Shown here: piece by piece, positions 3,181 through 62,249 of the stretch
Layout of the letters: the number at the start of each line of letters is the position of its first letter
How positions within the stretch are numbered: the stretch's first letter is position 1
Origin: Eledone cirrhosa
Taxonomy: Eukaryota
Reading direction: 5' to 3'
Length of the DNA stretch: 64,000 nucleotides
NCBI GenBank assembly: GCA_964016885.1
Contig: OZ024740.1
Span: forward strand, 277,822,001 to 277,886,000
Position numbers and translations under genes: made by a program
Notes under the pieces: model-generated
Seen by the model: only the letters and a program-made list of their open reading frames with translations
Told to the model about the DNA's origin: nothing
The model's database searches: none

Positions 3181-3756
3181 TGCTATTTCAGAGTTGTTGT
3201 TATTGCTGTTGTTGTTATTGTTGGCTTTTTCTCTTTGTAGTTACTGTCATTGTTCCGTAAAACATATCTATCGATTTAATTTTTGAACATAAGATTATTT
3301 TCACACTCACAATTTCGGTTTAGAAATCTCTATTCAGAAACATGTTCTATTTTATTTATGTTTTCGTTGGTATTTTATGATTCGGCTTTTGTTCTAGTTT
3401 TGCTTTGTTATTTACTCTGTTCGATAGGTGTTACGTCCAACTTCGTGATTTACATTATCAATGTGTTTATTCGTACAGTTTCTTTTTGTTATATATTATT
3501 TATTTTAAGCAGTTGATATGTCTGTTATGTTATTGGCTTTCAAAGTTTTCATTTAAACATTAACTAGTTTTTAATAAGATTTAAAACTTTTTTCCCTAAA
3601 ATTGTATTTGAAAGTATTTTTCTTGTTTTATGTTCTGTTCTGTTCTGTTGCTGTAAACTATGCGTATGTTATAGTAACTCTCAAGTCTATGTCATTTAGA
3701 TTTTTATTAGCAAGATTATCTCGTAATTTAGATCGTCATTATTATCGTTGGCTGGC

Positions 3757-4462: not shown

Positions 4463-7400
4463 TCTTAATAGGCATTTGAACTGTCAACAGGCTGCGGTTC
4501 GCACACACATCCCTGCTGACCATTATAACATCAACGAACCTCTTTGCTACTACTACACACACACACACACATATTTGTTTTGAAAGACTTATTTTTCAGT
4601 GACCTCTCAATCAGCCGACACAAACCTACATTTGGCGCAAAATCAATTTTTAACATTCACATGACCTCTACCGACCAATCAAAATTGTTTTGACTACAAG
4701 AATTTTTGCAACACGAATTGGCGCGAAACTTATTTTAATACCTCTGGAGCCACTTTTTTCACATAAAAACAGGTAGAATTTCTAAAACTAATCAGATTAG
4801 ACCAAACATCACGCAGCTCTATCTCAAAATTATTTTTGAAAAGCATTAGAAATGCGCAACCGGTAAAACTTAAAACCAAAACTGAATACTAACCAATACT
4901 ATTACTAATTTTCACTTATTCCTAATTAAACTATTTTTCACTGTGAACAATTTGTCAGCATATTCTGTTCCGTTTACCACTATATCATAACTCGTGTGTT
5001 ACACCTCTATTCTTTTAAATATATATATATATATATATACATATAGAGTTAAATGGAAAAGTGAAAGACTCTTCCAGAAGCTCAAGATGTATACAATGCT
5101 ATATCAACAATAGTTATTGTAAATATCAATCAAGGATCAAGGTAAGGATAAATGAAATGTATCTGAGAAAGAGAGGAATGGATATGCCATGTATTTATTA
5201 CCAGAACATTTGATATTGTTTTGTAACAGAGAACTTTCGAGATAATCATTAATTTTCCCTAATGATATAATATGATATAATAGATCAAGTATGTCATGGA
5301 TAAGAGGCAAGCAATTCTGTAGATACGAACAAATGAAATAATTATAAAATCGACAGTTATCTTTATTGGAACTAGCATATATAGTCTGTATATTGATATA
5401 GGCAAATATATATGCACAAAGATATGATTCGTAATTTGTCATTATGCACATAAACTGAACAAAGACTGTGTTACACTTACTTCTGTAATCAGTAAAGTAA
5501 TCCATGATACATTTTTAAAAAAGGCGATAATGGAGATGGAAAAGCGATGAAACTGTTGACGGAAAATGTTCATGAATCTTCATTTGATAATGTCTATGGG
5601 AAGCTTCAAGCAGTGAATTTAAAAATAGATGCTGATGATATGAATGAATGAATTACATTTACCAATATGAAGAATTGACCTTCGTTATATTGCTGTTTTA
5701 CTGTATTCACATATAGACTTCTTAAGTTTTTGTAGTGTCCCTTTTCTAGCAGTTAAAAAGAAACTGAAATGCATTTCAACTAAAAGAGAGTGATAGCTGT
5801 TTCACGTCACTGTAGAATTTCTTTGTCAGCAAACAGACCCCTTTCATTTAATATTTTTATATTTTCTTTTTCTTATAACTCGTGATAATGCAACATACAT
5901 CTGACTATGTGAGAAGAATTGTATTGGTAGATATACACCTATCTTTTCAAATGTCTGCCCTTGTGCCTTGTTGCATGTAAGGACAAAGGCTGGTTTGACA
6001 GGAAATTGCTTGCGAGTAAAGGTGAAAGGGAACACAAGCTCTTGAGATACATGTGGTATCCTTGGGATTAGCAACCTTGTTCCAGCATTGGGACACAATG
6101 CCACTTCAGCTTCAATTACATGATTATGTAAACTGATGATGATGAAGCGTGTATCATTACAATGCCCGTTTTAAGGATCCAGATTAGTCAGAAGCATGAT
6201 GCAACTGCCTTTCTTTAGTTTAAGTATGTGGTGTTGGGAAGCCTGATGGGGTAAGTTTATTGATGAACTCAATTGGATATTGCACTTCATTATCTACTAT
6301 ATCAGAGCTTCTGTAGATTATTTCATGACCAGGGAACTTGTTGACCATGAACTCTTTCACCAATCTTGCTGCATCATTTGTTGGAGTGATAATGGCTCTA
6401 TTTGTAAGCCATAGTGGATTTGTGTAGTTTCCTGGAAGATTCGTATACACAAAATCACACAGTCCAGACACATTAACATATTCCAGACAAAGTTCATTTC
6501 GCAGAAGAATTGTGAATGCACCTACAGTTGAAACTTTTGGAATGTTACAATTTCCCACATCTAGAAGGTAGTTTGCAAACTGTTTGTCATAAGAATCCTC
6601 TGCATTAATTAACCGTTGATTGGTTGTCATCTCCATGGTTTCCACATAGTCCCAGTGATAGGATCTCTTGATGGTTGCCTCAACAATTTGTGGTCTAGCA
6701 CCATGACGTACAACTGGAAGAATTTGCTTCCAGTCACCAGATAGTAATACTGTTAAACCACGAAATGGCTTTTTGAAATCTCGAACATCTTTGTAGCTCC
6801 TGTCAAAGCATTCAAAGATATGCTTATGTCCCATACCTATCTCATCAATGATTAGCAGGTCAGCTTGTTTATAGGTTTACCTGTGTCATCCCTCTTTGTG
6901 AAGAAGCAAGTTGATTCATCAGTCACATTGGGAGGAATCTTGCACTTGGAATGAAGAGCTCTACCTTTGTGAAGCAAAGTGGCTGCTATTCCAGATATGG
7001 CAGTGGCAAGTACAATTTATTTTTTATATCTGAGGTAATCCAATAGGATGTTTATGACATAGGTCTTTCCTGTACCCGCACTTGTATTCAAGCAGAAAAT
7101 TCTGCCTTCATTTTCATTTACAGAGGTGATTACTTCGTGAAAAATAACCGGTTGCTCAGGATTCAATGTTGGAAGAAGTTCATTTATGTTTGCTTGCAGT
7201 TGGTGTGTATTGAAATCAGTTTCTGCTATAAGAACCTTGTTGTCTTCTGGTATGGCAACAATAGTTGGGTCTGGCCGAGGAAGTCCATAGTTGTCATGAA
7301 TGTCGCAGTACAATAAAATGGTGCAGAATATCTCATGCAGCTGAGGACCAAATGTAATAGATGAGGCCTCTTCCATAGCTTTGTCTTTTTCTCCATCTTC

Positions 7401-10003
7401 ATCTAACAGACCAAGTTTCCTGCATGCTTCTTGGAATGTTGGAAATTCAACTCCTTCAATTGTTTTCAAATCTTTGTATGAAGTTGACCCAGCCGTGTGA
7501 TGTAGGATTATTCTGAGGTAATATAATTCAGATTGATGTCTACTGAGAGATACTGTTGGAATACGTTTTTGATCACCATTCAGATGTCTCCTTTTTCTTC
7601 TTTGCCACTTTTGTTTGTCCGAGTGAAATATTTAGGAATATCAAAATACAATATGTTTTGTGCCAGTGGGTCTCTAATATTCAGTTGAAAATATTGCGTC
7701 AACTTAGTCATTGGCTGTAGTTATTGATGTACTTATATAAGTACTTAACAGACTTGACACCGTGGTCAACCTCACCATTGATGTGGCACTGATATCTGAA
7801 TGAGAGGAAAGTGTTGTATGGAACAATCCAACGATTATAAACAGCAAATTCTTGACCTTTAAGTTAGATTGTACGGGTGTGACCACCATGCTGTCTATCC
7901 CTTCTTCTATACTCCGGAAAGGAATTTTCAGCAACAAATGTGGTTTGTCTGAATGCCTTGTGATAACATTTTGAGCAATGGCGTTGTTGTCCTAGCCCTT
8001 CCATACATGAGCACATCATATTAAGCCTGTCCACATGGGGCCATGAATGTTGCAGCATGTGATGATCTTATGCAGAATTGGATTGGTCTCTTTATCAGGA
8101 ATCTCACAGTAGACTACCTGATCAATGGCATCAGCAGTTTTGTGCTTGCTATCTTCAGCCATTATCAGCAGAGTGTGAGCATAAGTGAGGCCTCGTGTTT
8201 GCCACTCAGTTATTTTAGCAGAATGAGCCACACTTTTCCTAGGACAGTTCTTTTCAGTATATCATCCATGAGGCTGTCATACTTGATATTTAAGACACTT
8301 GCACAATATCAGGACGATCTCTAGGTTCTTCACCAGGGTGCAAACTATTTTTTATTTCCCCCCAGTTAGGGTTAGTTGTTACCGTGATGAAATAAGATGG
8401 CTTTCCCATGTGTTGAAGCACAGTCATCGAATTCTGAAAGCACTCACTGTAGAAGCGAGGGGAACAATAGATTGATGGAATATGAACAATTCTTCGGCCT
8501 GCATTTACTGAATCTCCTTCAGCCATACTTTTCAAACTTTTCATACTTTTCATCTCGTATCATGGTTTGATTGTGGCGGGCCCATTTGAGGCGACACTGT
8601 TCTATTTTGGTCTGGGCATCTACAGCATATTGCTGCATCAGCCGCCTGCTCTTCGTGATAATGTTACAGTCACCTTGCCTAACCTGAATCCGATGACAGT
8701 AGAAATCAGTGTGTGGTTGTTTTCAATCCTTTTCAAACCGACCTGAAACCCATCATTTCCCCAAGGAAACAGTAGCACATAATGCAGAGGATCATAAGAA
8801 CGGTGCAACTGATGAATCCTCTGAAGACCACCATCTCTTTTATGAATGATGACACCAAAAGAACTAATGCTGTATCAGGTTGAATAACAGCAATCTGAGA
8901 TGCCATGGGAAGATTAAATGTGCGACAATGAAAATCAGTGGGTTTTACTTTTTCAGCATGTATGACAATATTCACATTTAAGAGACTGGCATTTCAATGA
9001 CTGACTGTAAGCTTCTTATATAGGTGTTGCAGTAGTGCAAATCTTCTTGCAGGTCCTGAAGAACAGCAGCATCTAAATTAGCATGATGCAAGCGATTCTG
9101 AAGCTCATGAACTGCGCAAACTTGGATGAAGAATCACTTGGAAGTACTGATCCAATAATATGACACATCTTACCTTGGATCTTAAATGTGGGACTAAATC
9201 TTGGTGCTTTAATCTCTTTGCAACCAATTGAAGCTAAGACAAGCACATTGTTATATGCACGTATCTTATGGAGAAAAGAATTTCCTGCTTGAGTGATATC
9301 GAAATATTTTAGTATATTTGGTGGAGGAGGAAGTTGAGGGATTTTCGCTTTTCTCTGGAAGCAGCACAGAGATTTGAGTTCATGTGGCCAGCGATAAGCT
9401 TTGCAGTGTGGACAAACAAAGGCAAAGAGACTCCTTGCATTATGTTGTGGCATTATGGAAAGAACAGTCTGCTCTTGGAAAGGTTCATCTGTAGGATTCT
9501 TTGCCAGACCTTTAATTGACTTGTTCCTTCCTCTCTGAACGTTTGGTGAATTTGTTGCAAGTTGTTGTTGGTGTGTTAACTGAATTACATTTGTAGAAAT
9601 TTGTTGGGATGTTGCAGAGCGATTATTGTTTGATTGATTTGCCCTCTTCTCTATTTGTCGTTGTGCGTCTGCTGCCATGCGCTGGGATTTAGATGAGAAA
9701 TGTTTTCTGCGCCCCATATTCACTTTCTGTCCAGTATGTATAAATATATGTTATCTCTACGGTGAAATCTTAGAAGTAAATATATGTCAAAACAAAAATA
9801 TAAATATAAATATATATAGCTGACACGGAGAAAAGAAATCTTTGAAATAAATGTATGTTTGAAATAAATGAGAGACGGAATATTATATACTTTATTAGCG
9901 TCTGCTATTCCAAACACCATATATATATATATATATATATAGGGGGGGGGGGCGTAGTATGAGGTATTCATAACAACAGTAGTAGCAGCAAAGCGCGTAT
10001 CAA

Positions 10004-21675: not shown

Positions 21676-21712
<37 letters not shown>

Positions 21713-21714
<2 letters not shown>

Positions 21715-22422
21715 TATGTCATTTATTTTGTCTAACCTGTTTAGCTTGACTTGTTTTTTTGCTTAGGTGGTTAATGGCTTCTTGACCGCCGTCTCAGTTT
21801 GTATGGCCTTTATAACCTATGTTTATTGCTCTGGTCTTTTAGCCCATGGAGCGCTTGCCAGCATCACTCGGAATTTGCCGTACGTTTCGCTTTTTCTACC
21901 CGCCGAAATGCGATTCTCGCTGAATTTATACTTGTATTAAACTCCCGAGACTTACAATTAACCTGTTAATAATTCTATTGACAGATTAATTGCATAAGTT
22001 TATTTTAAAAACTACCCGGCCGAGAGCTTATTCGATTTGTGCTATTTATGCAATTTTTACATGGATTTACACATACTGAATTCATTTACCAAAATCTGGG
22101 GGTTTCCCCTGTGAGTTACAAATATGCTTTTACAAAACACTGTGTCCTGCACAACACTGGCGCAGAACAAAATACCTGTTGATAACGTGATATTCCTCGT
22201 TCGATCATTATACCAAAAGCTTATTGTTTTAAGCAGACAGTATTATTGATTTAGGTGTCGCAGAAACCCTGTACTGGATTTTACCATCAATTGCAAGGGT
22301 CCAGGTTAGTTATATATATATATATATGTATATGTATATATATATATATGACTATGTCATTTATTTGCGTTACGTTTCGCTTTTTCTACCCGCCGAAATG
22401 CGATTCTCGCTGAATTTATACT
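21713..22422 (+). mobile_element. Non-coding hammerhead-bearing repeat (family B), order X-Y-HHR-(X restart), between (TA)n tracts
   Basis: Homologous to 35155-35710 (-) and 54050-54745 (+). The X start TATGTCATTTATTT and CGTTTCGCTTTTTCTACCCGCCGAAATGCGATTCTCGCTGAATTT recur at about 22353-22422. Confidence 0.75.
22174..22306 (+). ncRNA. Type I hammerhead, U3-A8 core, extended stems II and III
   Basis: ACCTG-TTGATAA-c-GTGATA...TGTCGC-a-GAA-ACCCTGTA...TGCAAGGGT-C-CAGGT. Perfect 5-bp stem I, GUC site. Confidence 0.75.
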
Positions 22423-22527
<105 letters not shown>

Positions 22528-22613
22528 GTAGGTCCCGGGTTGAGTCGGGGATAACCACAGTAAGTAAGGTACTCAATACATGGCAGAGTAAAAATTGTTT
22601 ATTTTATAGAAGG

Positions 22614-22664
22614 AGATTCTACAGGACTAGTACTGTTTCATTCAGATGAAATCTTCAGGAAGCT
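22614..22664 (-). ncRNA. Type I hammerhead in pLTR family A (22527-22720)
   Basis: AGCTTC-CTGAAGA-tTTCATCTGAAt-GAA-ACAG-tactagtc-CTGT-A-GAATCT. Confidence 0.7.
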
Positions 22665-22894
22665 GGGTGTCATATTAAGTTCTGGTATTTATACATTTAG
22701 GTAGTGGTAAGGGAGGGGGGGTAGGATGGTATTTAGATACACAGGACCACAACATGGCACAGGCCGTTTTTTCTTTGGGGAGTGGTCAATTAGCCAGAGT
22801 GCTTTTTTGAAATAAATGAATGAATGAATGAATGAATGAATGAATGAATGAATGAATGAATAAATAAATATATATATATATATAAAAAGTCTAA

Positions 22895-34571: not shown

Positions 34572-34649
<78 letters not shown>

Positions 34650-34650
<1 letters not shown>

Positions 34651-35030
34651 AGATCCCGGGTTAAATCGGGGATAACCACAGTAAGTGAGGTACTCAATAC
34701 ATAGCAGAGTAAAAGTAATTTAATATAGAAATGGCTTCTACAGGACTAGACATGTTTCATTCAGAGAAAATCATCTCAAAGCCGATTGTCAATGTAAATT
34801 TCTGGTATTTATACATTGTGTACGGTAAGGGGAGGGTATCGGTAGGGGGGGGGGTAGAGGTCAGGATGGGGATTCTTAGAAAAAACAAAATTTATTTACA
34901 GAAAGATTTACAGCAAGTTGCAATTGAAATAAACATTTCCTTATTCTATAGTACAATTTTGAATAAAAAGTATATCAAGTAGTTGATCGAACATCTGTGG
35001 AAATGGTAGGTTAGTACAAGGTGACAAGCA
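34650..35030 (-). mobile_element. pLTR family A copy (hammerhead core damaged)
   Basis: AGATCCCGGGTTAAATCGGGGATAACCACAGTAAGT shared with 48904 and similar to 22527; homologous to 55690-56000 (+). Confidence 0.75.
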
Positions 35031-35154
35031 GACACACAAAGGCACACGCGCCCACGCGCGCGCTCACACACACACGCACACACATACACACATATATATA
35101 AATACATATATACACATACATATACATATATATATATACACATACACATACATA

Positions 35155-35710
35155 AATTTAGCGAGAATCGTATTTCGGCGGGTAGAAATTAGCGAAACGC
35201 AACTTCCATATTGTGCAGACAAGCGCTCCATGGATATGAAGATACCAGAGCTATAAAGATAAGTAAAAAAGGTCATACAAACTGACACGATGGTTAAGAA
35301 GCCATTAACCACCTAAGCCAAAAAAGCGAACAAGCTAAACGGGTCAAACAAAATAAGATATGATTGAAATAGTTACCCGGACCCTCGGGGAAGATGGAAT
35401 ACTCCGAATTTGGGTTTCTTCAACACTTAAATCAATAATTGTTTCTACTATTGGCATAAGGCCAGCAATTACCAGTACATTACTGGTACTTTATGTTATC
35501 GATCCCGTAAGGATGAAAGGCAAAGTTAATCTCGGCGGGATTTGAACTCAGAATGGCAAGGGCCGTAAGTCTATGCGTGACAGCATGGTGTCCGACCCTA
35601 TACCGATACTGCCAATTCACCGCCCTTCAATAATACTGTGTGCTTATAAAAATTAAGCTTTTGGTATAATGATCGAACAAGGCATCACTTTCTCAAAAGG
35701 CATTTTGTTC
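35155..35710 (-). mobile_element. Family B copy (HHR-X) with a SINE (about 35440-35626) inserted in the hammerhead stem II loop
   Basis: Minus strand TTGAGAA-aGTGATG...[SINE, TSD TCAATAAT 35432-35439 / 35627-35634]...GAAACCC...GGGTC-CGGG. Confidence 0.75.
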
Positions 35711-35750
35711 TTCTACGTGGGCCAGAATCTCACAGGTTATATATAGATGA

Positions 35751-35799
35751 GATTCTACATAACTAAAACTGTTTCATTCTTTAGAAATCATCAGGAATC
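35751..35799 (-). ncRNA. Type I hammerhead (diverged family A)
   Basis: GATTC-CTGATGA-tTTCtaaaGAAt-GAA-ACA-gttttagtta-TGT-A-GAATC; perfect 5-bp stem I. Confidence 0.7.
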
Positions 35800-36087
35800 G
35801 GGGTATCAAAAAATAAATATGGTATTTATAGGCCTCTTCAGGTGCTAGAAGAGGGTGAGGAGTGGGATGGGTAGAGGTCATTGCTTGATAGAAAAGGAAA
35901 TTCATTAAAAGCTAATTCCTTAAGGTTCTACTTAGAGTGACAAAGGCCAAGAGAATTCTATAGACCAGTTCAAAATATTGAAGGCCTATCCTACCATTAT
36001 CTTCAAGTTTCTCTTAAGCTATATTCCAGGTGTTAACAGATACATTCACAAACACACACGCGCGCGCGCGCGCCCACCCGCACACAG

Positions 36088-36832: not shown

Positions 36833-38475
36833 AAATATGTAGTTTAGAAAGCCACAACAATGCAGATGGGAAATTTCGAGGTAGGAAGTGAATGAGAAAT
36901 AGGAGAAAAGTGAAAATTGAGAGAAACGAAAAAACGAAAACAAAACAAAGGTAGAAGGGTGACCGTAGTGGAGATTTAATCCCAATATTTCGGGTTCACG
37001 CCCATCAACGGGGGGAAATTTCCAAAAGGGGGGGAACGGGCTAAGCCGGAGAAAGAGGGAGACATAAACACCACCTTCTACCGCAAGGCAGCGTGCAAGG
37101 ACTTATTTGTGCATTACAACTCAGCCCTCCCCAACAACGCTAAGAGAGGCTATGTCCTAAATGAACTTACACGGATCACTAATAGATGCAGCGACCCGAT
37201 GGGTGGTCTCACCCATACCACGCAATTCCGTAATCTACTCAAGTCTAATGGATATCCCAAGCGACTGATTAACGGAATTAGAGACCCCAGACCCAATAGA
37301 CAGCCACCCACTAGTAACTTAGATTAATACAAGTGCTTCTTTAAAATCCCTCACCTGAGTGAATATACCACGAACGCCATCCGCAGGGCCATACGGAGGG
37401 AGGGACTTGACATACATTTGGCCCACACAGGACCTTCGCTCCGAAGATGCATCTCCACCAAACCCGACGAGTCAGATGGGACGTGTTCCCTCAGCAACTG
37501 CCCGATACGGGGGGCAGATTGCCTACGCACCTATGTCGTATATAAGATTCAATGCGATAAATGTAACAAGTTTTACATAGGTAGCACCATCCGACCCCTA
37601 CATGTTCGTATCAAGGAACATGTCAACACCAACGCATCTTCCTTCCGTAAACACATCCTTAAATGCGGAAACCCACAGGGCAGACCCTTGGTCACAGTCC
37701 TAGCGACTGAACGTAGCATCGGACCCTTAAGGATAAAGGAAGCACTTGTTATTAAGAACCTCAGACCCCCACTTAACAACCGGGCTGAGAGAAATGAGCT
37801 GACATGGCTAATCTAACCATAGTGACCAGTAACAGCCCCTACGGCCTACTATCTTTCACACACACGCACTTATATGTATACCCATACACATACACACACA
37901 CACACATCTATATTTATACACGCACACATGTTTATACAACCTACCACCTTTCACACCCTTTGAATTCCAGCTTCTACGGCCCACTATCTTTCACACACAC
38001 ACACTCACATACATACACACATACACATATACACACACAGTTACACACACATATATGTTTACACACACATATTTTACGGCTTTCACACGCTAGCGCACCC
38101 TATTGATTTAACCCAATTGGTCAGTAGCTTTTGCCACAGCCTATCACGCGCACGCGCATTCTCTCCCTCGTTTGAATTTTTCCCCATAACGGCATTCCTA
38201 TGTTTTAACGACAATACAACTTTCTCCGGCTTAACCCGTTCCCCCCCTTTTGGAACTTTCCCCCCGTTGATGGGCGTGATCCTGAAATATTGGGATTAAA
38301 TCTCCACTACGGTAACCCTTCTACCTTTGTTTTGTTTTCGTTTTTTCGTTTCTCTCAATTTTCACTTTTCTCCTATTTCTCATTCACTTCCTACCTCGAG
38401 ATTTCCCATCTGCATTGTTGTGGCTTTCTAAACAACATATTTTACATATTTTACAATGCTTCAAGCAAACTTGAA
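36833..38475 (+). mobile_element. 5'-truncated PLE (RT thumb plus GIY-YIG) with inverted pLTR (36833-37054 / 38221-38446), in (TA)/(CA) repeats
   Basis: FYRK..HYNSALP..NGYP..IPHLS..CSLSNCP..VVYKIQCDKCNKFYIGSTIRPLHVRIKEH..EALVIKNLRPPLN; one internal stop near 37325. Confidence 0.9.
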
Positions 38476-38739: not shown

Positions 38740-40395
38740 GTGCTCATAGATATACGCAGATACACAGGCACATAAAAACAGCTCTACAAGCAGAAAATGC
38801 AGATAGGTAAGAGGTACTCACATAACCATAGTGGCCGGATTTCAGGTTGAGGAGGGGTGGGGTGGGAAGGGGGTAGAGGGGCTAAAAGAGGGAAGTCGTT
38901 TTTAGCCATCGGGCTTTAACACTGACTTAAGGTATTTGAAAGTTGCAACGTTCTTGTGCATGCAGTTCGGGCAGTGCTCAGAGAGTTTGTTCAGTAGCGA
39001 GCCCTTGGCGAATAAAATTTCGTAGCTCTCTGAGATACAAAGGTTGCAGCCCTTCCGTCCTCCGTTATAAGAGCGCTTTCTGGAGTATTTTCCATTTAAG
39101 CGTGAAGGGGGTGGAGTTCTTTTTGAGGTCCCAAACATAGGAGGCGAGTGTTGTCTGGTTTGATTTGTCCGGTCTTCTGAAGGAGTGGGTATGGGCACAC
39201 CAACTGGTCTTAAAGTTATTGGAAGTCATGCCGATGTAAGTCTTTTTGTTATTGCACTCATCGGTGCCTGAGATGACATCGCATTTCTATACGATATCAT
39301 TTGTCAGGCATTTGTTTTCAAGTGGGCAGGCTTCCTTATTTAGGCAATTACACAAGGCCCCAGTCCGGGCATTGGGTTCGGAGGTGGTTGGCTTATTTAA
39401 TTTTTTAGAATCGTGGTTGGCTATATTCTTAGCTAGGTTAGGTGTGGTGGAGTAGGAGAGTCTTATTGTGTTCTTATTAAAGATGGTGCAGTACCTATGT
39501 TGTATGAGGAAGTGTGTTTTCAGCAAAGTGAAGAAAATCCTAGCTATTGGTTTAGAGACCTCTCTATTGAAGGGGGGGTTGTACCAGCTAATTTGCCTAT
39601 GCCTATTCCTCCTCTGCCATCTTGCGGTGGTTTTAGGTAGGTTATCTTTTCTTTAAATCCGCTGCGGACGAGGGCGTCATTGTAGTAGGGGGCAGAAGCG
39701 TTAAAAATATCTTCGTTGGCAGAGAGGCCAGAGATTCTAATAGAGACGCTTTTTACTAAGTTATCAGTGATGTTTTTGGGGTGGTTAGAATTAACATCAA
39801 TATATCTAAGGGACTCGTTAGGTTTGTGGTACGGGTAATAGAGGGAAGTATCTAGGTCGAGAGTGACATCTAAGAAGTTGGCCCTAGTCATATTAGATTC
39901 TATAGTTATACTAAATCCTAGATTAGAGAAGAACGAGCTTAAGTTTCTCCGAAACCCATCGGTGGTTCTGTGGTTAACCTGGTGCAGTGCGAAGAGGCTG
40001 TCGTCTCGGTATAAACCTCCGGTTAGGCCAGTAAAGAGGTTCTTCAGGGATGTAAAATGTACAAGCCCAAAAGGTCGCTAATTTCAGCCGAGGCACTGGC
40101 TCCCATACTGACGTCATATGGGGTCTGAGACTTCTTGTTGATCCAGTAAGATCCATCGTGGTATAGAAAGGTCTTACGGGCGTTGAGGATAACAACTTGC
40201 TCAGCATCGGTAATGATGGTAAAATTACTGGCAAAGGTAATTTCGTCCTTCAGGAGGGGCTCCGAGATAGAAGCATAGTAGTTTTCTATGTCGAGTTGCA
40301 CGAAGCTAGTGTGGCGGTTGTCGGGTAATTCTTGGAACCAGGATATTGCCTCAGATATTCTACTCCAGAGGGGGAGTGGTTAGGCAACCCGCAAT
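38740..40395 (-). pseudogene. Naiad-like PLE, 5'-truncated and frameshifted (same family as 46709-48854)
   Basis: LDIENYY, SMGASASAEISDL, NFLDVTLDL, CNCLNKEACPL (CxCx5C), YIGMT, CNLCISE..CMH. Confidence 0.9.
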
Positions 40396-40744: not shown

Positions 40745-42630
40745 AAAAAGTATGACCCGACGGCAGAACTCAAGCCGTTTCGATGGCTATTTCTGGACTA
40801 AATTAGAATTTTTAGCCTGGTGAATAAATAGCCGAACTTGTCAACTTATATGGGAAGATTGTAGTTGTCAAGAGGATTGGTTAAAATTTGTTGTAAACAC
40901 AAATAAGTCTATCTTGGCATTTGGTGGAAGGTAGGGGTGGCTGAACTTGCCTGTAGAACAATAGGGGCAACACCTATCGGGAAAATCTTCTTTAGACTCC
41001 TCGAAAAACACTTCCCACTACAACACCGCTACCACAACATAATCAACAAAAACTCCATCAAACTCTCCTACATCACCACACCTAACTTCGCACAAAACAT
41101 CGTCTCCTCAAACGACAAAAAACTCAACCCCTATGGAAGAAATATCCTAGGCATCAGTGGAGAGCCGACCAGGAGGTGTAACTGCCCTGATAGATCTACG
41201 TGCCCCCTTTACAACAAATTCCAAGAACGTAACGTGATCTATCAGTGCAACGTTCGGACGCACACCTCCAACAAAACTTATATAGGATTAACCGCGTGTG
41301 ACTTCAAGAGCCGGCTCTACCAACACCGACATACTTTCCGAAACTCAGATTGGAAAGGGACGTAACTATGCTGGAAAGCATAGCATCCGACCCTCTACCG
41401 ATACTGCCAATCCACCGCCCTAACAATTGTTTCTACTTTAGGCACAAGGCCAGCAATACCCAGTGCATTACTGGTACTTTATTTTATCTACCCCGTAAGG
41501 ATGGAAGGCAAAGTCAACCTCGGTGGGATTTGAACTCAGTTCGTAAAGGGACGTAACTATGCTGGAAAGCATGGCGTCCGACCCTCTACCGATACTGCCA
41601 ATCCACCGACCTCCAAGATAATAATATAACCTACAATCTCACTTGGAGCTTACTGTCAAGAACTAATTCTTGCACGGGAGGACGCCGTCCGTGTAACTCA
41701 TGCTCGCAGGAATTATTACAAATGCTGTTTTCGAAGGACCACCTCCCAAACAAGAAAGACGAACTGGTAACCGCATGCAAACACAGAATGCGTAGGACTT
41801 ACCTCGCCTTCAAACCCCATAACGACCCGGGTGGGTAGACAAGGGATGATACCCTCACACACACACACACACACACTTGCCGAATAGGTTAGAGGAAACC
41901 CCAGCTTACATAGGTAGATGTATCTCTTTTCATTTCTTTTCCTCATTGTCTGCTTTTTCCCCCTGTTTTATCCTATCACTTCCTTCCACCCCCTATTTTC
42001 TTCCTCGTCTGTTTTTCCCCTTTCGCCTACCCCGATGCAGCCCATCAGGCCTCTGTAGCATCAGTTCCCCCACACCTGTAATTTTAAGATATAATTTGCC
42101 GAATACGTTTTACTAACTACTTATAGCAGACGTGTTAAACCCCTTTTATTTTTGTATCAGTTTTGGTACTACTCAATTTCTACAAGTGTTTCTATTCTCA
42201 ACTTATTAACCTGTAATTGTAAGATAGCATTGTGATTTTTTTTTTATTCATTTCTAACTTTATTTTTAATTTCTTTCTATTAACTTTTATTGTCTCCTAC
42301 TCTCATTCGATTTACCTATTCTATAAGCTCCCTCTTCCACTTCATATACTATCCTTAGAATCTGCTGCATACATATCACTTTCAACGCTTGACCGCACCA
42401 CTCACTCCCTATTGTTCTACAGCCACCCTACCTCCCACCAAATTCCATGATAGACTTATTTGTGTTTACAACAAATTTTAACCAATCCTCTTGACAACTA
42501 CAATCTTCCCATATGAGGAAGTACCCCCTTGACAAGTTCAGCTATTTATTCACCAGGATAAAAATTCTAATTTAGTCGAGAAATAGCCGTCGAAACGGCT
42601 TGCGCTCTACCGTCGGGGTCATACATTTTC
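40745..42630 (+). mobile_element. 5'-truncated Naiad-like PLE with inverted pLTR (40745-40930 / 42430-42630); GIY-YIG interrupted by SINEs (about 41352-41610, minus)
   Basis: IGKIFF..HFP..LSY..CNCPDRSTCPL..IYQC..YIGLT..FKSRLYQH, resuming after the SINE with CNSCSQE..CKH. Confidence 0.85.
42525..42618 (+). ncRNA. Type I hammerhead, U3-A8 core, extended stem II
   Basis: CCCC-TTGACAA-G..GCTATTT...AAATAGC..C-GAA-ACGG-cttgcgctcta-CCGT-C-GGGG. The inverted copy at about 40755-40844 lacks the 5' arm of stem I. Confidence 0.75.
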
Positions 42631-46708: not shown

Positions 46709-48854
46709 TCATCGTTCAGGGGGAAGAACTGGACTATATGACTTGTAAGTTGCATAGTTTTTGTGCATGCAATTCGGGCAGTGTTCTGAGAGTCTATTGA
46801 GTAAGGGTCCTTTGGCGAATAGTATTTCGTAACTCTCGGAAATACAAAGGTCACAACTATTATGGCCTCCTGTGTAAGACCGCGCTCCCTGGAGTAGTTT
46901 CCATTTGAGCGTAAAGGGGATAGAGTTCCTGTTTAGGTCCCAGACATGGGCGGCGAGTGTTGTTTGGTTGGACTTGTCCGGGCGTCGAAAAGAATGGGTG
47001 TGTGCGTACCAACGGGTCTTAAAGTTGTTGGAGGTCATCCCGATATACGTCTTTCTCTCTTCATAAGGGCCTGAGATGACATCACATTTGTATACAATAT
47101 GCTTTGTAAGGCATCTATTGCTGAAGGGGCATGCAGCCTTATAGTGGCAGTTGCACAGGACCTCAGTACCGGGTTAGGTTTCGGAGGTAGTAGACTTATT
47201 TAACTTAGTAATATTAATATTGGCTAAGTTCCTAGCTAGATTTTGTGTAGTGGAGTAAGAGAGTCTGATTGTGTTCTTATTAAAGGTGGTGTAGTACCTA
47301 TGTTGGGTGGAGAAGTGTTTGTGCAATAGAGTAAAGAAATTTTTTGCTATAGGTGTAGATACCTCGCGGTTGAAAGGGGGGGAGTTGTACCAGCTAATTT
47401 GCCTCTTCCTATTCCTCCTGGGCGGGCGTGGGGCTATTCTGAGATAAGATATCTTATCTTTAAAACCGCTACGGGCTAGGGCTTCGTTGTAATAGGGGGC
47501 CGCGGCCCTAAATATATCCTCATTGGCGGAGAGGCCAGAGATCCTAAGGCAGACACTTTTAACTAAATTAGCTGTAATGTTCTTGGGGTGATTCGAGTTA
47601 ACGTCTATATATCTAAGGGGTTCGTTAGGTTTGTGGTACGGATAATAAAGGGAGGTTTCTAAATCGAGAGTTACATCTAAGAAGTTGGCTTTAGTTAAAC
47701 TCGAATCTATAGGTATTCTGAGGCCTAGGTTATTGAAGAAAGCGTTAAGGTTTTTCTGAAACCCATCGGTAGTCCTGGGGTTAATTTTATGCAGGGCAAC
47801 GAGGCCGACATCTCGGTATAATCCGCCTGTAAAGCCTGTAAAGAGGGTTTTCATCCGGTTAAGGATAGACAGGCCCACCAGATCACTAATCTCAGCAGAG
47901 TCACTAGCACCCATGCTGACATCGCCGGGTGTCTCCGATTTTCTGTTGATCCAGTAGGACCCATTATGGTACAAAAAGGTCTTACGTGCATGGAGGATCA
48001 CATCCTGCTCGGCGTCGGTTATGGTGGTTAGGTTTCTTGCGAAAGTAATTGCATCCTTCAGTAGGGACTCAGAAATGGAGGCGTAGTAATCCTCAATGTC
48101 AAGTTGCAGGAAACGGGTGTTGTGTTTGTCAGGCAGTTCTTGGATCCATGAGATTGCTTCGGATGTTCTACTCCAGAGTGGGAGAGGTGAGGCTGCACGC
48201 AGTGTCGGTAGTATCCTGTTCAGGATCTTCTTGCTAACAGATCCTATGTCGGATTTTGTGGGGTTTATTAGCCGGACCGATGGTTTATTGGTGAAATTTC
48301 CCTTGTGGTCCTTAAGGGTAAAATGCGGGGCCTTTACCCTCAAAGGTTCAGTCCTATCTTCCAGTTTAAGGGAAATGGCGATGTTTTTTCCGGCTAAGTT
48401 GGTGCCAGTCAGTAGTTTTTCATCCACTTTTTTTGTAATTTGCTGTAATCGCATTGTTAACCAGCTTCCTTAGGTATCCTGGTTAACCTCATAGACGTTT
48501 TTTGTTTTGTCGGAAGGGACGTGGAGATTCGGGGAACTCTTCACTTTCTGTACTTTGTCCCTTAAGTCAGTCTGGAATGGAATGTTGACTGCGGAATTTA
48601 ATATTTTTGATCATTTTGAAGAGATCTTCCTCAAAAGGTTCAAATAAACTGTTGGTGGGTGGTGTCTTATTTGATTTAAAGCCGAACTTCTCATTGTTGG
48701 TTGATGCTACATCAGGGTGGTCGAAGAAAAAGGATCTCCATCTAATGCGTTTGATGAACTCATCGGTCCTTCTAATAAGAGATTTTAAGTACAATTTCCT
48801 TGGTGGGATCGGTATGATTTTCATGGAGGTATCGAGGTCAAGTTTGGTCAGCAT
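46709..48854 (-). pseudogene. Near full-length Naiad-like PLE ORF (N-terminus, RT, CxCx5C linker, GIY-YIG); frameshifted, catalytic YRDD changed to YRDV
   Basis: IKRIRWR..FGFKS, TLKDHK..PSVRLINPTKS, LDIEDYY, SMGASDSAEISDLVG, GLYRDVGL, NFLDVTLDL, CNCHYKAACP, YIGMT..FKTRW..H, CDLCISE..CMH. An inverted copy of the 3' UTR lies at 49076-49240 (versus 46488-46653). Confidence 0.95.
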
Positions 48855-48987
48855 CGTTTCTTGGTGATGGTTATTAGGGGCAGGTTGGTGTGCTAGATAT
48901 ATGTAGATCCCGGGTTAAATCGGGGATAACCACAGTAAGTAGGGTACTCAATACATAGCATAGTAAAAGTAATTTAATATAGAAATC

Positions 48988-49036: not shown

Positions 49037-49235
49037 CGACTGTCAATGTAAATTTCTGGTATTTATACATATTTATACCTTTGTTTTGTTACCTTTCAAA
49101 CTTATAACTTATACTTTAACTTTTCTCTACTTGTATTTATGTTACTTAATTTTAATTTATGTTATCTGATGGCTTTTCATATCTTGATTGGTTCCTTAAT
49201 TTTTTCCCCTTTGTGTATTTTTATGTGTTTATATG

Positions 49236-49295
<60 letters not shown>

Positions 49296-51589: not shown

Positions 51590-53100
51590 GCAAGTGTGAT
51601 TTCATGTGTGGGCAACTGGTGAATATTTCTGTTTTTGCGTTTAGGCAGGTTTTTTGTGATTTAAAGTTCTGTAAAATCTAATATTTTTCACTTATGCAGA
51701 GTGCGCATCTTCTTGTTCCTCTTGCATAATATTTAGATTGGTTCAAAATTGACCAATCTAATTTATATTGGATACCTTGGTATTTCAAATCCCATATTCT
51801 GCTAGCCAGAACTGTTGTAAATCTTTTTTCAAGATGTCGGAAAGATGCGACATGTGAGTAATAACGCGTTTTGAATTTGTCTTGTGTCATACCCACATAT
51901 CGTTCGCTGGTGGCTGGTAGGTTGTTGCTGGTAGTTTTCACTTTAGCCTCATATACAATGGCTTTGGTGTTGCATTTACTTTGTAATGGGCACTCACGTT
52001 TGACTCTACAGGAGCAATTTTGATGTTCTCTGGGTATCTTCTTATTGAGGATATAAGATTTAATAGAGGGACCGCAGGAGTAGCTGATTTTGACACAGTT
52101 TCTATTGAAGATTTTATAGTATCTATGTGTTCTAGGGAAATGTTTATCTAAGAACTCTAGGAATGTTTTGCCTACATTAGTTTTAACTGCTAACGAGTAG
52201 GAGGGTGTGAACCAGATTATTTTTCTTTTCCTATTTTTATTTAAAGGAGCTAGTATTGTTGGGTATGTACTTAATCGGTTCGCTAATCCGTTATTTCGAA
52301 GGGCTTTATTGTAGTAGAGGATGCCTTATTGAAAATAGCTTCTGAGGAAGAGAGGGTGGAGATCCTACTGCTAATATTAGGGATAATATTTTTAAAAACT
52401 ATAGGAGGATGGCAAGAGCCTTTATTTATATATTTTTAATTTTCATTTGGTTTATGATACGGTTTATAAGAAGCAGTAGGCAGATCTAGATTTATATCTA
52501 GAAAATTAACAGTAGAAAGTTTAGTGCCAATGATAATTTTAAGATTAAAACTAGCGAAGATTTTATTAAGTCTTTCCTGAATCTATCTAAGTTATGGCCT
52601 ATAGTGGTATGGCAAAGTATTAGACCATCGTCACGATAAAGCCCAAAGGTATGGTTAGGGAATTTCTCTTTAAGTGTGTGTAGGAGGAATAGGCCGACTA
52701 AATCACACGCGTCAGCACTGTCAGAAGAACCCATTGAGACGTCGAATGGGTTCTCTGGCTTAGATTTTTTTATCCAAGTGTTATTATTAGTAAAAAGTAA
52801 GGTGTTTCTAGCAGGCACAATGACATTCTCTTCAATATCAGAAATATTGATGAACTTTTTAGCGAAATTTAATGCTTTCGTTAAAAGAGGGTGAGTAATA
52901 GAGGTAAAAGTCTACAATGTCAAATTGGGTGAATCTAGAACTATTTTTATCTTTATTATTTTTAAACCAATATACTACAGAAGAGCTATTTATCCATTGG
53001 AGTAATTCAGACTTACTTCTAATAAGTTTGATTATATTATTTAATATTTTGTTGCTAGTAAGGCCGATTTTAGTCTTAGCAGGGTTGTCTAATCTAGAAA

Positions 53101-53993: not shown

Positions 53994-54049
<56 letters not shown>

Positions 54050-54744
54050 GAACTTAATTCGTTTTGTGATATTTTGCAATTTTGCAATAATAATATACTT
54101 ACTGAATTCATCCACCAAAATAAGGGTTGCCTCCCTTGTCGAGCCCCATGTGGGTATTGGTAACGGTCAATCCTTGGCCTGGCACTTGAACTAAAATCCT
54201 GTTGAGAAAGTGACGTCCTTGTTCAATCATCTTACCAAAAGCTTAACATTATTTGTCTCGGTGGATTGGCGGTATCGGTAGAAGGTCGGACGCCATGCTT
54301 TCCAGCATTGTTCTGTTCCTTTACGATCTGAGTTCAAATCCCGCCGAGGTTGACTTTGCCTTTCATCCTTACGGGGGTCGATAAAATCAAAGTACCAGTA
54401 ATGCACTGTGTAATTGCTGGCCTTGTGCCTAAAGTAGAAACAATTATTTGTCTAAGCGGACAGTACTTGATTTAGGAGTCGCAGAAACCCAAATGCTGGA
54501 TTTTAACCAACCATCCAGGGGTCCGGGTAAAGTTTTCAATCATACTTTTTTATTTTGTTTGACCCGAATTACTTGGTTGTTTCTATGGCTGTGCGATAAT
54601 GGTTTAACCATCGTCTCAGTGTGTTTGGCCTTTTAACGTATGTTGTAGCTCTGGTTCGTTAGAATTGATTGAGCGGTTGCCACACATCTCGGAAGTTGTT
54701 TTTCGCTAATTTCTAATAGCCGAAATACGATTCTCGCTAATTTA

Positions 54745-54982: not shown

Positions 54983-55247
54983 CTTGGAACACTAAAATAT
55001 AGGAGAACAGACCGTTAAAATATGTTTATTTAAAACAGCACCTACGTACGTTTCGGCCGAATGGGCTTCTCAAATGCATAAATAACTAACGTTAACTTAT
55101 CTCTAAAAACACTTTTCTGGCCATGTAAGGAACACTTTTTAGTTATTTATGCCCTTGAGAAGCCTATTCGGGCGAAACGTACGTAGGTGCTGTTTTAAAT
55201 AGACATGTATTAACGATCTGTTCTCCTATATTTTACTTTTCCACGTG
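54983..55247. repeat. About 105-bp inverted repeat with a U3-A8 minimal hammerhead motif in each arm (55038-55077 minus, 55151-55190 plus)
   Basis: TTGAGAA-GCCT-attc-GGGC-GAA-ACGTACGT-A-GGTGC; stem I imperfect. Confidence 0.65.
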
Positions 55248-55468: not shown

Positions 55469-55689
55469 ATGTGTGTGTATGCATGTGTATGTGTATGTGT
55501 ATATATATATATATATGCATATGCATATGTGTATATGTATGTGTATATATGCATATATATATATATATATATATACACATGTGTGTATGTGTGTCTGTAT
55601 ATATGTATATGTATGTGTATATATGTATTTATAAGAGTGTGTGTGTGAGCGCGGTCGTGGGCGCGTGTGCGTTGGCGTGTCTGCTTTTG

Positions 55690-56000
55690 ACCTTGTACTA
55701 ACCTACCATTTCCACAGATGTCCGATAAACTACTTGATATACCTTTTGTTAAAAATTGTACTATAGAATAAGGAAATGTTTATTTCCTTGCCACTAAACT
55801 TCTTTCTCTAAATAAATTTTATTTTTTCTAAGAATGCCCATCCTTTAATCCCACCATGACCTCTCCCCCCTCCAACCACTACCCTTCCCTTACCATACAA
55901 AATGTATAAGTACCAGAAATTTACATTGACAGTCGGTTTTCTGATGATTTCCTCTGAATGAAACAGTTCTAGTCCCTAGAAGCCATTTCTATATTAAATT
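55690..56000 (+). mobile_element. pLTR family A copy; hammerhead 55935-55984 with damaged stem III
   Basis: CTGATGATTTCCTCTGAATGAAACAGTTCTAGTCCCTAGAAGCC; reverse complement of the 34.7 and 49.0 kb copies. Confidence 0.75.
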
Positions 56001-56477
56001 ATATATATATATACACACACATTTATGCATAAGTGTGTGTATGTGCACCTATTTGTGTGTGCAAGTATTTTAAGGCTATTGTTGTCAGGGGTTAGTCTTG
56101 TGCTCCCCATGAAAAGCGTCATGCTTATCATGACGTTCTTTTTAAAGTAAATGCTAAAACCAATCTTTTAACTCGTCTGCCAGGATAAACAGTGGTGCAG
56201 CATACATATTCTAAATATCATATAAGCAGCATATATAAATATTCAGATATCTCTAAATATTTCGAACAGATAATTCCTCGATTGATTGGCATAGGTTTTT
56301 AATAGTTTATTATATGCTACAAATATCAGTCAAAATCGCTTAAAACCTTCAAATGTGAAGAGAACGTTAGATAAAAAATTATGAAATGTGTGTTACCCAT
56401 TATAAAGCTGATAAGAACTTATTCATATTTCCTATAATTGGCAAAGTAGTAGAAAATGATTGAGGACATGTTGTATA

Positions 56478-58793: not shown

Positions 58794-58795
<2 letters not shown>

Positions 58796-59592
58796 GTTGA
58801 GAAGAGGAGACCTCAAAAAGGCTACAGAAGGAATGCTAATGGCTGCGCAGGAGCAGGCCCTCAAAACGAAGTGGTTGAAGCACCATATCTACAAGGAGGA
58901 GGCTAGCCCACTGTGCAGGATCTGTGGAGAGAGAGAGGAGACTGTGGCCCACATTGTGTCCGAGTGTAAACACCTAGCCCAGACCCACTATAAGGGCTGG
59001 AGACACGATGTGATGGGCAGGGTGATCCACTGGCACCTGTGCAAAGTAAACAATCTACCACATTCTGAGAAATGGTATGAGCATAGGCCAGAGGCGGTGA
59101 TGGAGAACAGTCAGGTGAAGGTGCTGTGGGATTTTAGGATACAGACGGACAAAAAACTGGAACACAATAGACCTGACCTGGTGGTTGTGGACAAAGAAAA
59201 ATGATCGTGCCTGATTGTGGATGTGGCCTGCCCGTTCGACACGAGAGTGCAAGAGAAGGAGAGGGAGAAAATTAACCGATACCAGGACCTAAAGTGGGAG
59301 GTGAAAAGGATTTGGAACTGCCATGAAGTCAAAGTGATCCCGATTGTCATAGGCGCACTGGGGACTATCTCCAAAGGTTTCCAGGGATGGTTAAAGAAAA
59401 TCGGCCCCTTCACGCTTTTTGGAACGCTTCAAAAGGCATGCTTGCTTGGAACGGCAAGAACCCTCCGATACGTCCTGAATATCTGAGGCTGCAGGTAGTG
59501 GCTTGATATTCAATCCAACGGACTTTCCAGTTAACCAACATCAATGACTGAGATTCAAGGAATAACAATAACAATAATAATAATAATAATAA
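58794..59592 (+). mobile_element. Dong/R4-like non-LTR retrotransposon 3' fragment in (AAT)n
   Basis: AAQEQAL, CRICGEREETVAHIVSEC (CCHC), RHD, LWDFRIQTD..RPDLVV..DVACP..EK..RY (REL endonuclease); one internal TGA; (AAT)n on both sides. Confidence 0.9.
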
Positions 59593-59631
59593 CCGCTTTT
59601 ATTCTGCATCGCACTTATACCATTAAGTAAA

Positions 59632-61242
59632 ATGCTCAATGAAACAAAACATGGATATAAAGTCTATGACAAAACCATTAATCACCTGTTCTACATGGAT
59701 GACCTGAAACTATTTGCAAAAAATGATGAACAATTGCAAGGGCTATTATCCACTGTGGAGCAGTTCAGTGATGACATTAAAATGGAGTTTGGACTAGATA
59801 AATGCGCCAAAGCAACGTTCACCAGAGGAAAGCTGCTGAAGAGTTCAGACATTAATCTTGATCGGAGGAATGTGATAAGAGAACTTGATCAAGAAAAAAC
59901 TTACAAATATCTAGGTGTTTGTGAAGGAGACCGAATCAAGCACTCGACAATGAGGGAAAGGATAAGGAAGGAATGTTACCGCAGAGTAAGAGCAATCTTA
60001 AGAACGGAATTGAATGCAAGGAATAGGATCGATGCTATAAACACGCTTGCCATACCAGTAGTAACCTACAGTTACAATGTCATCAACTGGTCAAGCACAG
60101 AGATCCGTAGGCTCGATACAAAAATTCGAAAATTCTTAACCATGCACAGAATGCATCACCCTAAGGCAGATATAGATAGAATATATCTCCCTAGGAAAGA
60201 AGGAGGACGTGGGTTAATTCAGTTAGACATTGCGTTGAAAACTGCAACAATTGGATTATCTACATATCTAAGGGAATCACATGATTGGATGATCAAACTC
60301 GTTTTGAAACACGAAAGCATCAAAAGATCATATTCCATTACAAAAGATGCACAAAGATACAGTAATGGACTACAAATTTCAGAAGTCCCATTTACTGCTG
60401 AAATGGAAAACACAGAAAAAGCAAAGCAGGTAAAAGTAACTGCAAAGAAAGAACTGCTACAGAAACTGGCTAAGAAATGGCAAGAAAAGCCTCTGTATGG
60501 AAAATACCCAGAGCGAGCTAACAATCCTGATGTTGACAAAACTTTAACCCAACAGTGGTTGGCATCCTCTGGACTGAAATCGGAGACTGAAGTACTGATT
60601 ATATCAGCACAAGATCAGTGTCTGCCAACAAAAAATTACCAAGCCAACATAATAAAAAATGGATGCAGCCCATTATGCCGTGTATGCAAAAAACAACCAG
60701 AGACCATTGACCATATAATTTCAATGTGCAGTCCTATAGCTCCAACCGAATACCTAAACAGGCATAACAGAGCTGCACAATACATACATTGGATAATGTG
60801 TAAGCATTTTGACCTGCCCCATCAAAAGAATTGGTGGGAGCATCAACCACCTCCCATACTTGAAAAAGATCACATCTCAATCTTGTGGAACTTTAGCATC
60901 CAAACAGACCGAAAAATAGATGCAAATAGACCTGATATAATATTGAAGGACTTTAAAAAGAGGGTATGCCTGCTAATTGATATGTCAGTTCCAATAGACA
61001 AGAATGTATCTATAAAAACATTTGAAAAATTGAGCAAGTATAAGGACCTGGAGATAGAAATTGGAAAAATGTGGAAATTGAGAACTAAAACAATACCAGT
61101 GGTTGTAGGCGCTCTGGGAATGATACCTAAGGGGTCTAATGATTACTTATCGCAGATCCCAGGAAACCCGCGTATAGGAGAAATACAAAAGATAGTACTA
61201 ATGGGAACTGCCCATATACTAAGGAAGATTCTGTCAATATAA
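59632..61242 (+). CDS. 5'-truncated Dong/R4-like ORF (RT domains 5-7, CCHC finger, REL endonuclease), open over 536 aa
   Basis: HLFYMDDLKLFA, FGLDKC, YKYLG, LPRKEGGRGL, CRVCKKQPETIDHIISMC, RHN, RPDIIL..IDMSVP..EKLSKYKDL; 3' UTR ends in (TAA)n at about 61383-61400. Confidence 0.9.
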   Translation: MLNETKHGYKVYDKTINHLFYMDDLKLFAKNDEQLQGLLSTVEQFSDDIKMEFGLDKCAKATFTRGKLLKSSDINLDRRNVIRELDQEKTYKYLGVCEGDRIKHSTMRERIRKECYRRVRAILRTELNARNRIDAINTLAIPVVTYSYNVINWSSTEIRRLDTKIRKFLTMHRMHHPKADIDRIYLPRKEGGRGLIQLDIALKTATIGLSTYLRESHDWMIKLVLKHESIKRSYSITKDAQRYSNGLQISEVPFTAEMENTEKAKQVKVTAKKELLQKLAKKWQEKPLYGKYPERANNPDVDKTLTQQWLASSGLKSETEVLIISAQDQCLPTKNYQANIIKNGCSPLCRVCKKQPETIDHIISMCSPIAPTEYLNRHNRAAQYIHWIMCKHFDLPHQKNWWEHQPPPILEKDHISILWNFSIQTDRKIDANRPDIILKDFKKRVCLLIDMSVPIDKNVSIKTFEKLSKYKDLEIEIGKMWKLRTKTIPVVVGALGMIPKGSNDYLSQIPGNPRIGEIQKIVLMGTAHILRKILSI

Positions 61243-62249
61243 GTACATCACAAGTCTAAACACTAAAGATGCATGTGTATGTATGTTCTTCCTTGAACAT
61301 GGCGGACCTTGTTGTCTCTTGAGGTCACTGGTTGTGACTTGGTGATAACTCGTATGAACATAAAGCAAGATAAATGCAACTGTAATAATAATAATAATAA
61401 TGTTCTTGTGATGCCTTCCTCATTTAGTGGGAATACTATGATGTCTGTCTTAGCAGGAGGTAGTGGGAGAGAATAGCGGCGGTAGCGATAATGAGGCAGT
61501 GGTGGTGGTGATGTGATCGTAGTACTGTAGTGATGGTGTTGAAGTTGAAGTAGAAATAGAAGTTGAGGTAACTTGACTAGAGTTTTTGGCGTGGTAGTGG
61601 TGATGGTGGCGGTGGTGGTGTTGGTGGTGAAATTATTTGCCGGTCTGTCCACTTAGCCATTTTTCTCTTTTTCGACTATAACATTTCTGATCCAAAATTA
61701 AATATTAAATATTGGGGCCCTATGCCGTAATGGGATGCGTTGTCGCCTGCTGAGGGTTAAAACTGTAATCTTATACTTCATTTGTAATAAGAATTATTCT
61801 ATCACAGTTGTTTTAAATAAGTAAAAATCAAAAACTTACGGGAGCGATTCCATAACGATATATATCCACCATGTGCGTTTTCTTCCCTTAGATATAAATA
61901 GACTGATTTGATGACACGGTCAAAAAATTAAAAAAAATAAAAAATAAAAATAAAAACAGCACAGCAGCAACGACAAACGTAAAGAAAAGAAAAAAGAAAG
62001 AAAAAACAAACAGACAGACAGTCAAGCAAAAAAAACTAAGTCAGACATTCAAACATTACATTACAATGAAACTTATGATTATTTTGGTTTTTTTTTACCT
62101 ATTTGTTTGTTTGTTTATTTATGTTCGTCTACAGCGTGATAGTGCCACGCTAAAATCACCGAGGGTGATCAAATCACCGGAGGTTATGTAACCATACATT
62201 CACCAATCCTCGATAAGAGTGTTTCAATGTTGAAACTAAACAGTTCGAA

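Follow-up and report, generated by a model that had tools for sequence, protein, structure and literature searches.

The locus at 21.7 kb raises the question of how three homologous sequences within a single window (the 64,000-nucleotide stretch of Eledone cirrhosa DNA that was analyzed) come to display the same blocks in different orders. The earlier note on this DNA took the differing orders to mean circular permutation of a hammerhead-bearing element, and the copies on which this claim was based are real: they are homologous, occupy 21712-22421 (+), 54049-54742 (+) and about 35735-35155 (-), and read X-Y-HHR-X', Y(part)-HHR-X and HHR-X, respectively, where HHR is the hammerhead. We conclude that they belong to a non-coding repeat of ~610 nt, with the order Y-ribozyme-X and thousands of copies, that probably represents a non-autonomous Penelope-like retroelement, a large non-LTR retrozyme. 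The features of the three copies are as follows.

21680..21711, no strand: (TA)n tract at the 5' junction, either the target tract or the internal TA tract that belongs to the unit
21712..21926, plus strand: block X belonging to the partial unit upstream; its last bases are the fixed-end motif of the family, GATTCTCGCTGAATT
21927..22174, plus strand: block Y, connected to block X by the conserved X-to-Y junction
22175..22305, plus strand: predicted type I hammerhead, cut predicted after 22301 (GGGTC ends at 22301)
22311..22349, plus strand: internal (TA)n tract between the ribozyme and X, typical of the subfamily of the 21.7-kb copy and absent from others
22350..22421, plus strand: terminal block X', with ~140 nt missing internally, stopping at the fixed 3' end
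22422..22526, no strand: (TA)n tract at the 3' junction, the likely target
54049..54742, plus strand: second copy, of another subfamily, 5'-truncated Y-HHR-X, predicted cut after 54523
about 54259-54448: insert, presumably SINE-like, in stem II of the second copy
35155..35735, minus strand: third copy, of another subfamily, HHR-X preceded by the end of Y; one pair of stem I is broken
about 35436-35626: insert, presumably SINE-like, in stem II of the third copy

All three copies finish at one point, the end of X, and the 21.7-kb copy carries one ribozyme; the TA tract at 22311-22349 belongs to the unit of its subfamily. The block orders originally proposed stand, but the maps overlooked the ~190-nt repeat inside stem II of the 54-kb and 35-kb copies; the 35-kb copy, drawn as HHR-X, begins with a few bases of Y, and the restart of X at 21.7 kb, which is indeed present at 22350, is internally deleted by ~140 nt. 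A descriptor scan of the window places the hammerhead counterpart in the second copy at 54198-54527; in the 35-kb copy, the broken stem I pair reads CCTT/CGGG.

The complete unit is about 570-630 nt long, with the order Y-ribozyme-X, a GC content of 32-38% and no ORFs. Exact genomic matches number 3,583 for the X-end motif and 582 for the X-to-Y junction, which puts the genomic ends of the family at 3,583 or more, and the linkage of X to Y recurs in other copies, a point that had been named beforehand as one on which the proposal depended. Several subfamilies are apparent, with 72-98% identity among ten compared. The impression that the element carries no recognisable ORF was confirmed on 18 units: read as circles, they contained no ATG-initiated ORF longer than 94 aa, and a blastx comparison with the 7 Penelope-type proteins of the window yielded nothing better than E 0.1.

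The descriptor scan identified, at 22175-22305, the pattern CCTG-UUGAUAA-C-[stem II]-A-GAAA-CCC...GGG-UC-CAGG, in which stem I is CCTG/CAGG, the core reads U3-U4-G5-A6-U7-A8-A9, and the arms of stems II and III span 77 nt and 33 nt, respectively. An unpaired C and A, one base on each side, form the foot of stem II, and the usual G10.1-C11.1 pair next to the core is missing. A search of the 3.0-Gb genome with a core pattern yields 1,148 exact matches, against 0 with the reversed control, so the hammerhead pattern is not due to chance. Position 7 takes all four bases among 96 distinct copies (T 59, G 22, A 11, C 4). Across 19 diverse copies, pairing is found in 97.5% of 393 cells, against at most 46% in slid controls, and two-sided changes affect 4 of the 8 stem II pairs; when this set was picked, stems I and III were partly selected for, whereas stem II was not selected for pairing. 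The core and the stems are conserved across subfamilies as far apart as about 70%, and the stem variants previously quoted for the window copies are present in the sequence as given. The covariation across subfamilies thus supports the prediction of a type I hammerhead at 22175-22305 that would cut after 22301. The minimum-energy fold of 22164-22312 is the hammerhead; with longer flanks (22160-22315), the fold contains no stem I and is no more stable than shuffles (z -0.56), and in the RNAalifold result stems I and III appear but the base of stem II does not. Rfam returned no hammerhead match for 21900-22320, nor any among 150 of the 174 matches listed for the window, which contain TA-repeat noise. 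The core is U3-A8 here and mostly U3-G8 in the young subfamily described below. Elsewhere in the window, an inverted pair at 55035-55195 includes a minimal hammerhead with a UUGAGAA core and a palindromic stem III, so U3-A8 is common to more than one window family.

The repeat that interrupts stem II in the 54-kb and 35-kb copies, which we take to be SINE-like, is abundant in the window and shows short target duplications; a comparable insert occupies the same arm at 7 of 90 other loci. Entry into this arm appears to be repeated, near ATTATT motifs, at L045, L054, L066, L069, L096, L101 and L108 as well as in both window copies.

The ends of the insertions reveal where the differing block orders come from. 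In the older subfamilies, for which the first part of contig C1 was sampled, the ribozyme-anchored loci extend to the X-end region in 83 of 90 cases, with scattered 5' ends. Anchoring on the X end gave 90 loci; once the 9 internal junctions had been removed, 81 terminal ends were left for counting, and 73 of these 81 have (TA)n within 30 nt, a raw count, without a background rate, on which the insertion bias to microsatellites was scored. The fixed end lies ~230-250 nt 3' of the predicted cut and leads into (TA)n after an extension of 0-9 nt into Y; no 30-40 nt tail was seen at these loci. In the 5' direction, 36 of the 81 terminal loci extend beyond the cut site, 16 continue into a second unit and 2 go past the second cut site, that is, copies traverse the X-to-Y junction and a second ribozyme; inverted 5' pieces occur at L011 and L058/L059. 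The fixed 3' end, the 5' truncation and the partial tandems by which Penelope-like elements are recognized are all present. Plotting the starts and ends of copies on the monomer, as the earlier note had suggested, shows that the 3' ends coincide and only the 5' ends vary, so a circular or tandem template remains the appropriate reading of the permutation but random opening does not. The differing block orders are accordingly explained by a fixed end combined with variable truncation of a repeating template. Given that Penelope-like reverse transcriptase (RT) starts inside its RNA (PMC11167929, accessible sections), a fixed end is compatible with a circle; a circle is not, however, the sole conceivable template, because an uncut tandem transcript or jumps between cut monomers would give identical maps.

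In the mechanism that we propose, a copy longer than one unit would be transcribed, and the hammerhead would cut part of the RNA. A Penelope-type RT-endonuclease made elsewhere would nick a (TA)n tract, and reverse transcription would begin inside the RNA, at the single site where X ends, and proceed leftwards, halting at a variable point. The stop would often fall just short of the 5' end of the cut RNA; otherwise, the RT would pass the ribozyme and go round the unit, producing partial tandems of up to several units. The 21.7-kb copy could be such a product, of about 1.35 units, with its start just 3' of the upstream cut site. As for the template of more than unit length, we tentatively favor a ligated circle; an uncut tandem transcript appears less probable, and jumps between cut linear monomers less probable still.

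In a divergent relative, first found in L230, the unit measures 616 nt and the copies are 98-99% identical. The terminal pattern of this young subfamily is matched by 186 ends, and the 3' junctions inspected, picked with a query that included the end, share the same last base followed by A(TA)n. The counts cover 95 independent young insertions (the junction locus L293 and the duplicate L269 are left out): one unit or more is present in 39, two or more in 11 and three or more in 4; two or more ribozymes, arranged head-to-tail, occur in 13 of the 95, and the longest insertion comprises 8.7 units. Divergence between units is 0.61% within an insertion vs 1.77% between insertions, and rare variants are shared within an insertion in 41 of 82 comparisons, with L253, L257, L260 and L269 left out of the within/between comparison as duplicates. 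Such similarity fits repeated copying of one molecule but would also fit a homogeneous tandem donor. The 8.7-unit array displays a 4-unit higher-order pattern, so later DNA duplication likely contributed part of it.

Whether the ribozyme takes part in this process can be judged from the 5' ends. In the older subfamilies, the 18 nt at or 3' of the cut contain the 5' ends of 20 of the 56 copies at risk, vs 1.9 expected (P about 1e-15), and the pile-up includes subfamilies without an internal TA tract. Shared upstream sequence was considered as its cause and ruled out, the flanks being (TA)n or unrelated. In the young subfamily, the 36-nt window with the highest rate of 5' ends (5.8 vs 1.4 per 1000 nt) begins at the base after the cut, with an odds ratio of 3.75 (p 2e-5) after adjustment for AT content and TA microhomology; the start of this window is fixed by the predicted cut, and its width was chosen after the data had been seen. 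The 36 nt before the cut contain eight young 5' ends (odds ratio 2.25, p 0.056), so the boundary at the cut is not sharp. In our reading, the pile-up is probably the trace of RNA ends that were generated by the cut and then shortened to the nearest TA microhomology. The same mobility could, conceivably, be achieved with no ribozyme cutting in the cell, if the template was an uncut tandem transcript and the pile-up arose because the RT stalled at stem I or because AT-rich cDNA annealed to the (TA)n target. Consistent with such a scheme, the young excess, 4-36 nt downstream of the cut, falls where the young unit is richest in AT, the base of stem II is non-canonical, and only 1 of 9 Xenopus retrozymes was cleaved in vitro (bioRxiv 10.64898/2026.07.22.740005, accessible part). 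Furthermore, a 5' end exactly at the cut had to be rejected as the rule, with none among the young copies and 0 in 100 (the first 100 listed of the 459 copies that hold the bases just 3' of stem I). Nevertheless, we consider mobility without cutting by the ribozyme unlikely: the enrichment persists after the adjustment, the TA-rich loop of stem II, which served as the control, is not enriched in young 5' ends, and the core and stems have been kept across subfamilies ~70% apart. Moreover, a few older copies (L180, L185 and L186) start at the cut or within 3 nt of it, and one internal deletion, a single case genome-wide with none at the control position, ends precisely at the cut base without microhomology.

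Taking cleavage as the preferred reading, the fullest version of the scenario is that of a recently active retrozyme, in which an oversized, non-canonical hammerhead cuts in the germ line and a Penelope RT starts at a fixed internal site on a circle or a cut monomer, rolls or jumps across the cut, and writes up to several identical units into TA repeats; we put this version forward tentatively, as one that has a substantial chance of being correct, somewhat short of even. If it is true, the insertions would constitute direct genomic evidence for the proposed route of retrozyme mobilization, with several unrelated families behaving alike in one genome.

The scenario calls for an enzyme made elsewhere, and the genome is rich in RT-GIY-YIG elements, several of which have open frames of ~760 aa. 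Beside the loci examined, we found no coding element that has X, Y or a ribozyme of the 22175-22305 type in common with the unit, no ORF for RT plus GIY-YIG was found inside the unit in these loci and the 18 units, and a search for pseudo-LTR sharing within one endonuclease family, at 30 loci (150 of the 59,478 candidates having been scored), was negative. The sense ORFs upstream of L169, L183, L256 and L365 were ruled out as a partner, being separated by unrelated sequence and TA tracts. Loci L228-L240 represent a young Penelope-like family with near-identical endonuclease regions, in which the 3' regions are TA/TG microsatellite of more than 1 kb; this family is a candidate source of the enzyme. 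It is from the anatomy of the insertions and their target that we infer a Penelope-type partner, and, judged by its DNA, the family appears to behave as a non-autonomous Penelope-like element with the attributes of non-LTR retrozymes. That a coding Penelope-like element, instead, left the copies as truncated ends (pseudo-LTR fragments), with no independent mobility, seems quite improbable. Coding Penelope-like elements, too, typically show a fixed 3' end, truncation at the 5' end, partial tandems and inverted 5' pieces (PMC8557442, accessible sections), and the copies read here are a few hundred out of several thousand; however, what lies 5' of X is the ribozyme, Y and X again, never an ORF (90 + 90 + 96 loci), complete dimers and longer arrays without an ORF exist, and the 582 exact X-to-Y junctions also speak against this explanation. 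The earlier note would have abandoned its proposal had the copies been fixed-end fragments of a coding element; the fixed ends are there, but no copy examined is continuous with a coding ORF. A satellite-like repeat spread by duplication at the DNA level, with no RNA step, could be read into the higher-order pattern of the 8.7-unit array and the flanks common to L267/L269 and to L014/L017/L018, but is extremely unlikely and largely refuted by the polar ends, one precise and one ragged, in unrelated flanks on many chromosomes, and by the covariation of the RNA structure.

The window contains other elements of related kinds. A second non-coding hammerhead unit, of ~720 nt, at 46487-45747 (-), has a CUGAUGA core, a 95-nt stem II arm and a short palindromic stem III, with the hammerhead at 46050-45929; it likewise shows a fixed end and partial tandems, with 3,498 first-look candidates and copies 93-96% identical. 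Assignment of this hammerhead to the neighbouring coding element was rejected, the 3' end of the latter being near 46490. That neighbour is a broken RT plus GIY-YIG Penelope-like element at 46709-48914 (-), which, by its cysteine motif, we take to be Neptune-type; an inverted piece of its 3' end is located at 49076-49238, and a small hammerhead, at about 49035-48980, lies upstream of its ORF. Short copies of the segment with this small hammerhead are found at 22527-22700 (-), 34648-35148 (-), 35742-35830 (-) and 55582-56001 (+), one adjoining the 21.7-kb copy and another directly upstream of the 35-kb copy; both of those checked end in GGGA(T/C)CTAC followed by microsatellite. ORF pieces at 5844-9750 (-) presumably resemble Helitron Rep/helicase, by their motifs, and further fragments of Penelope-like and non-LTR RTs are scattered at 36980-37816 (+), 38902-40379 (-), 40907-41838 (+), 51678-52911 (-), 58794-61242 (+) and 62217-63737 (+).

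Among known systems, the closest are the metazoan non-LTR retrozymes (Cervera and de la Pena 2020, PMC7229834), which, in the accessible text, are alike in having a non-coding unit, one type I hammerhead, GC below 45% and head-to-tail copies, and for which Penelope-like elements are likewise the proposed mobilizer. The Eledone cirrhosa family differs from these in its unit of about 610 nt, compared to about 300 nt, in the 77-nt stem II arm, the 33-nt stem III arm, the U3-A8 or U3-G8 core and the unpaired foot of stem II, and in that most copies are dispersed and under two units. The monomer had been described as larger than typical and as having a U3-A8 core, and both traits are present but neither is new: retrozyme units of 51-972 bp have been reported (bioRxiv 10.64898/2026.07.22.740005, accessible part), as has U3-A8, in the hammerheads of Schistosoma Cercyon Penelope-like elements (PMC4209133, in part). 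The vertebrate retrozymes of the former study (Li et al. 2026), with a size range that includes the unit described here, also combine monomers, dimers and multimers with coding Penelope-like elements in the same genome; homology to pseudo-LTRs was noted for 24 of 57 Xenopus families, in contrast to none found here, and the accessible part of that paper contains no mapping of insertion ends on the unit that we could find. With the hammerheads of Penelope-like elements (PMC4209133, PMC8557442 and PMC11167929, each in its accessible sections), the family shares U3-A8, an extra base between 9 and 10.1, that is, after A9, and a longer helix II, the last two described in PMC4209133, and with the elements themselves, partial tandems, inverted 5' pieces, AT-rich or (TA)n targets and an internal start of reverse transcription, which has been demonstrated for a Penelope-like element in vitro (PMC11167929). 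Unlike these elements, it has no ORF and no clear 30-40 nt tail, and its stem III is long and stable as a monomer, in contrast to the minimal, dimer-type motifs; arms of 77 nt in stem II and 33 nt in stem III are not described in the accessible text of PMC4209133. For the anole element, cleavage by the ribozyme was dispensable for insertion in vitro, and no RNA reads ended at the cut (PMC11167929, accessible sections).

Our literature searches turned up no account of such hammerhead elements in cephalopods; repeat libraries or supplements may carry the sequence under another label. The words 'ribozyme' and 'hammerhead' are absent from the accessible main text of the 2026 octopus repeat annotation (PMC13282606). 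The insertion of animal retrozymes (PMC7229834) and the role of the hammerhead in Penelope-like elements (PMC11167929) are, as far as the accessible parts of these papers go, open questions, and the value of the family lies in the genomic record that it provides of how such elements are copied; because the RT start base, the target and the predicted cut are all specified by the near-identical young subfamily, every step is open to testing. Thus, the class, the U3-A8 core and the size range were known from other systems, and what the present family adds to them is an oversized ribozyme, a base-precise start and a pile-up of 5' ends at the cut.
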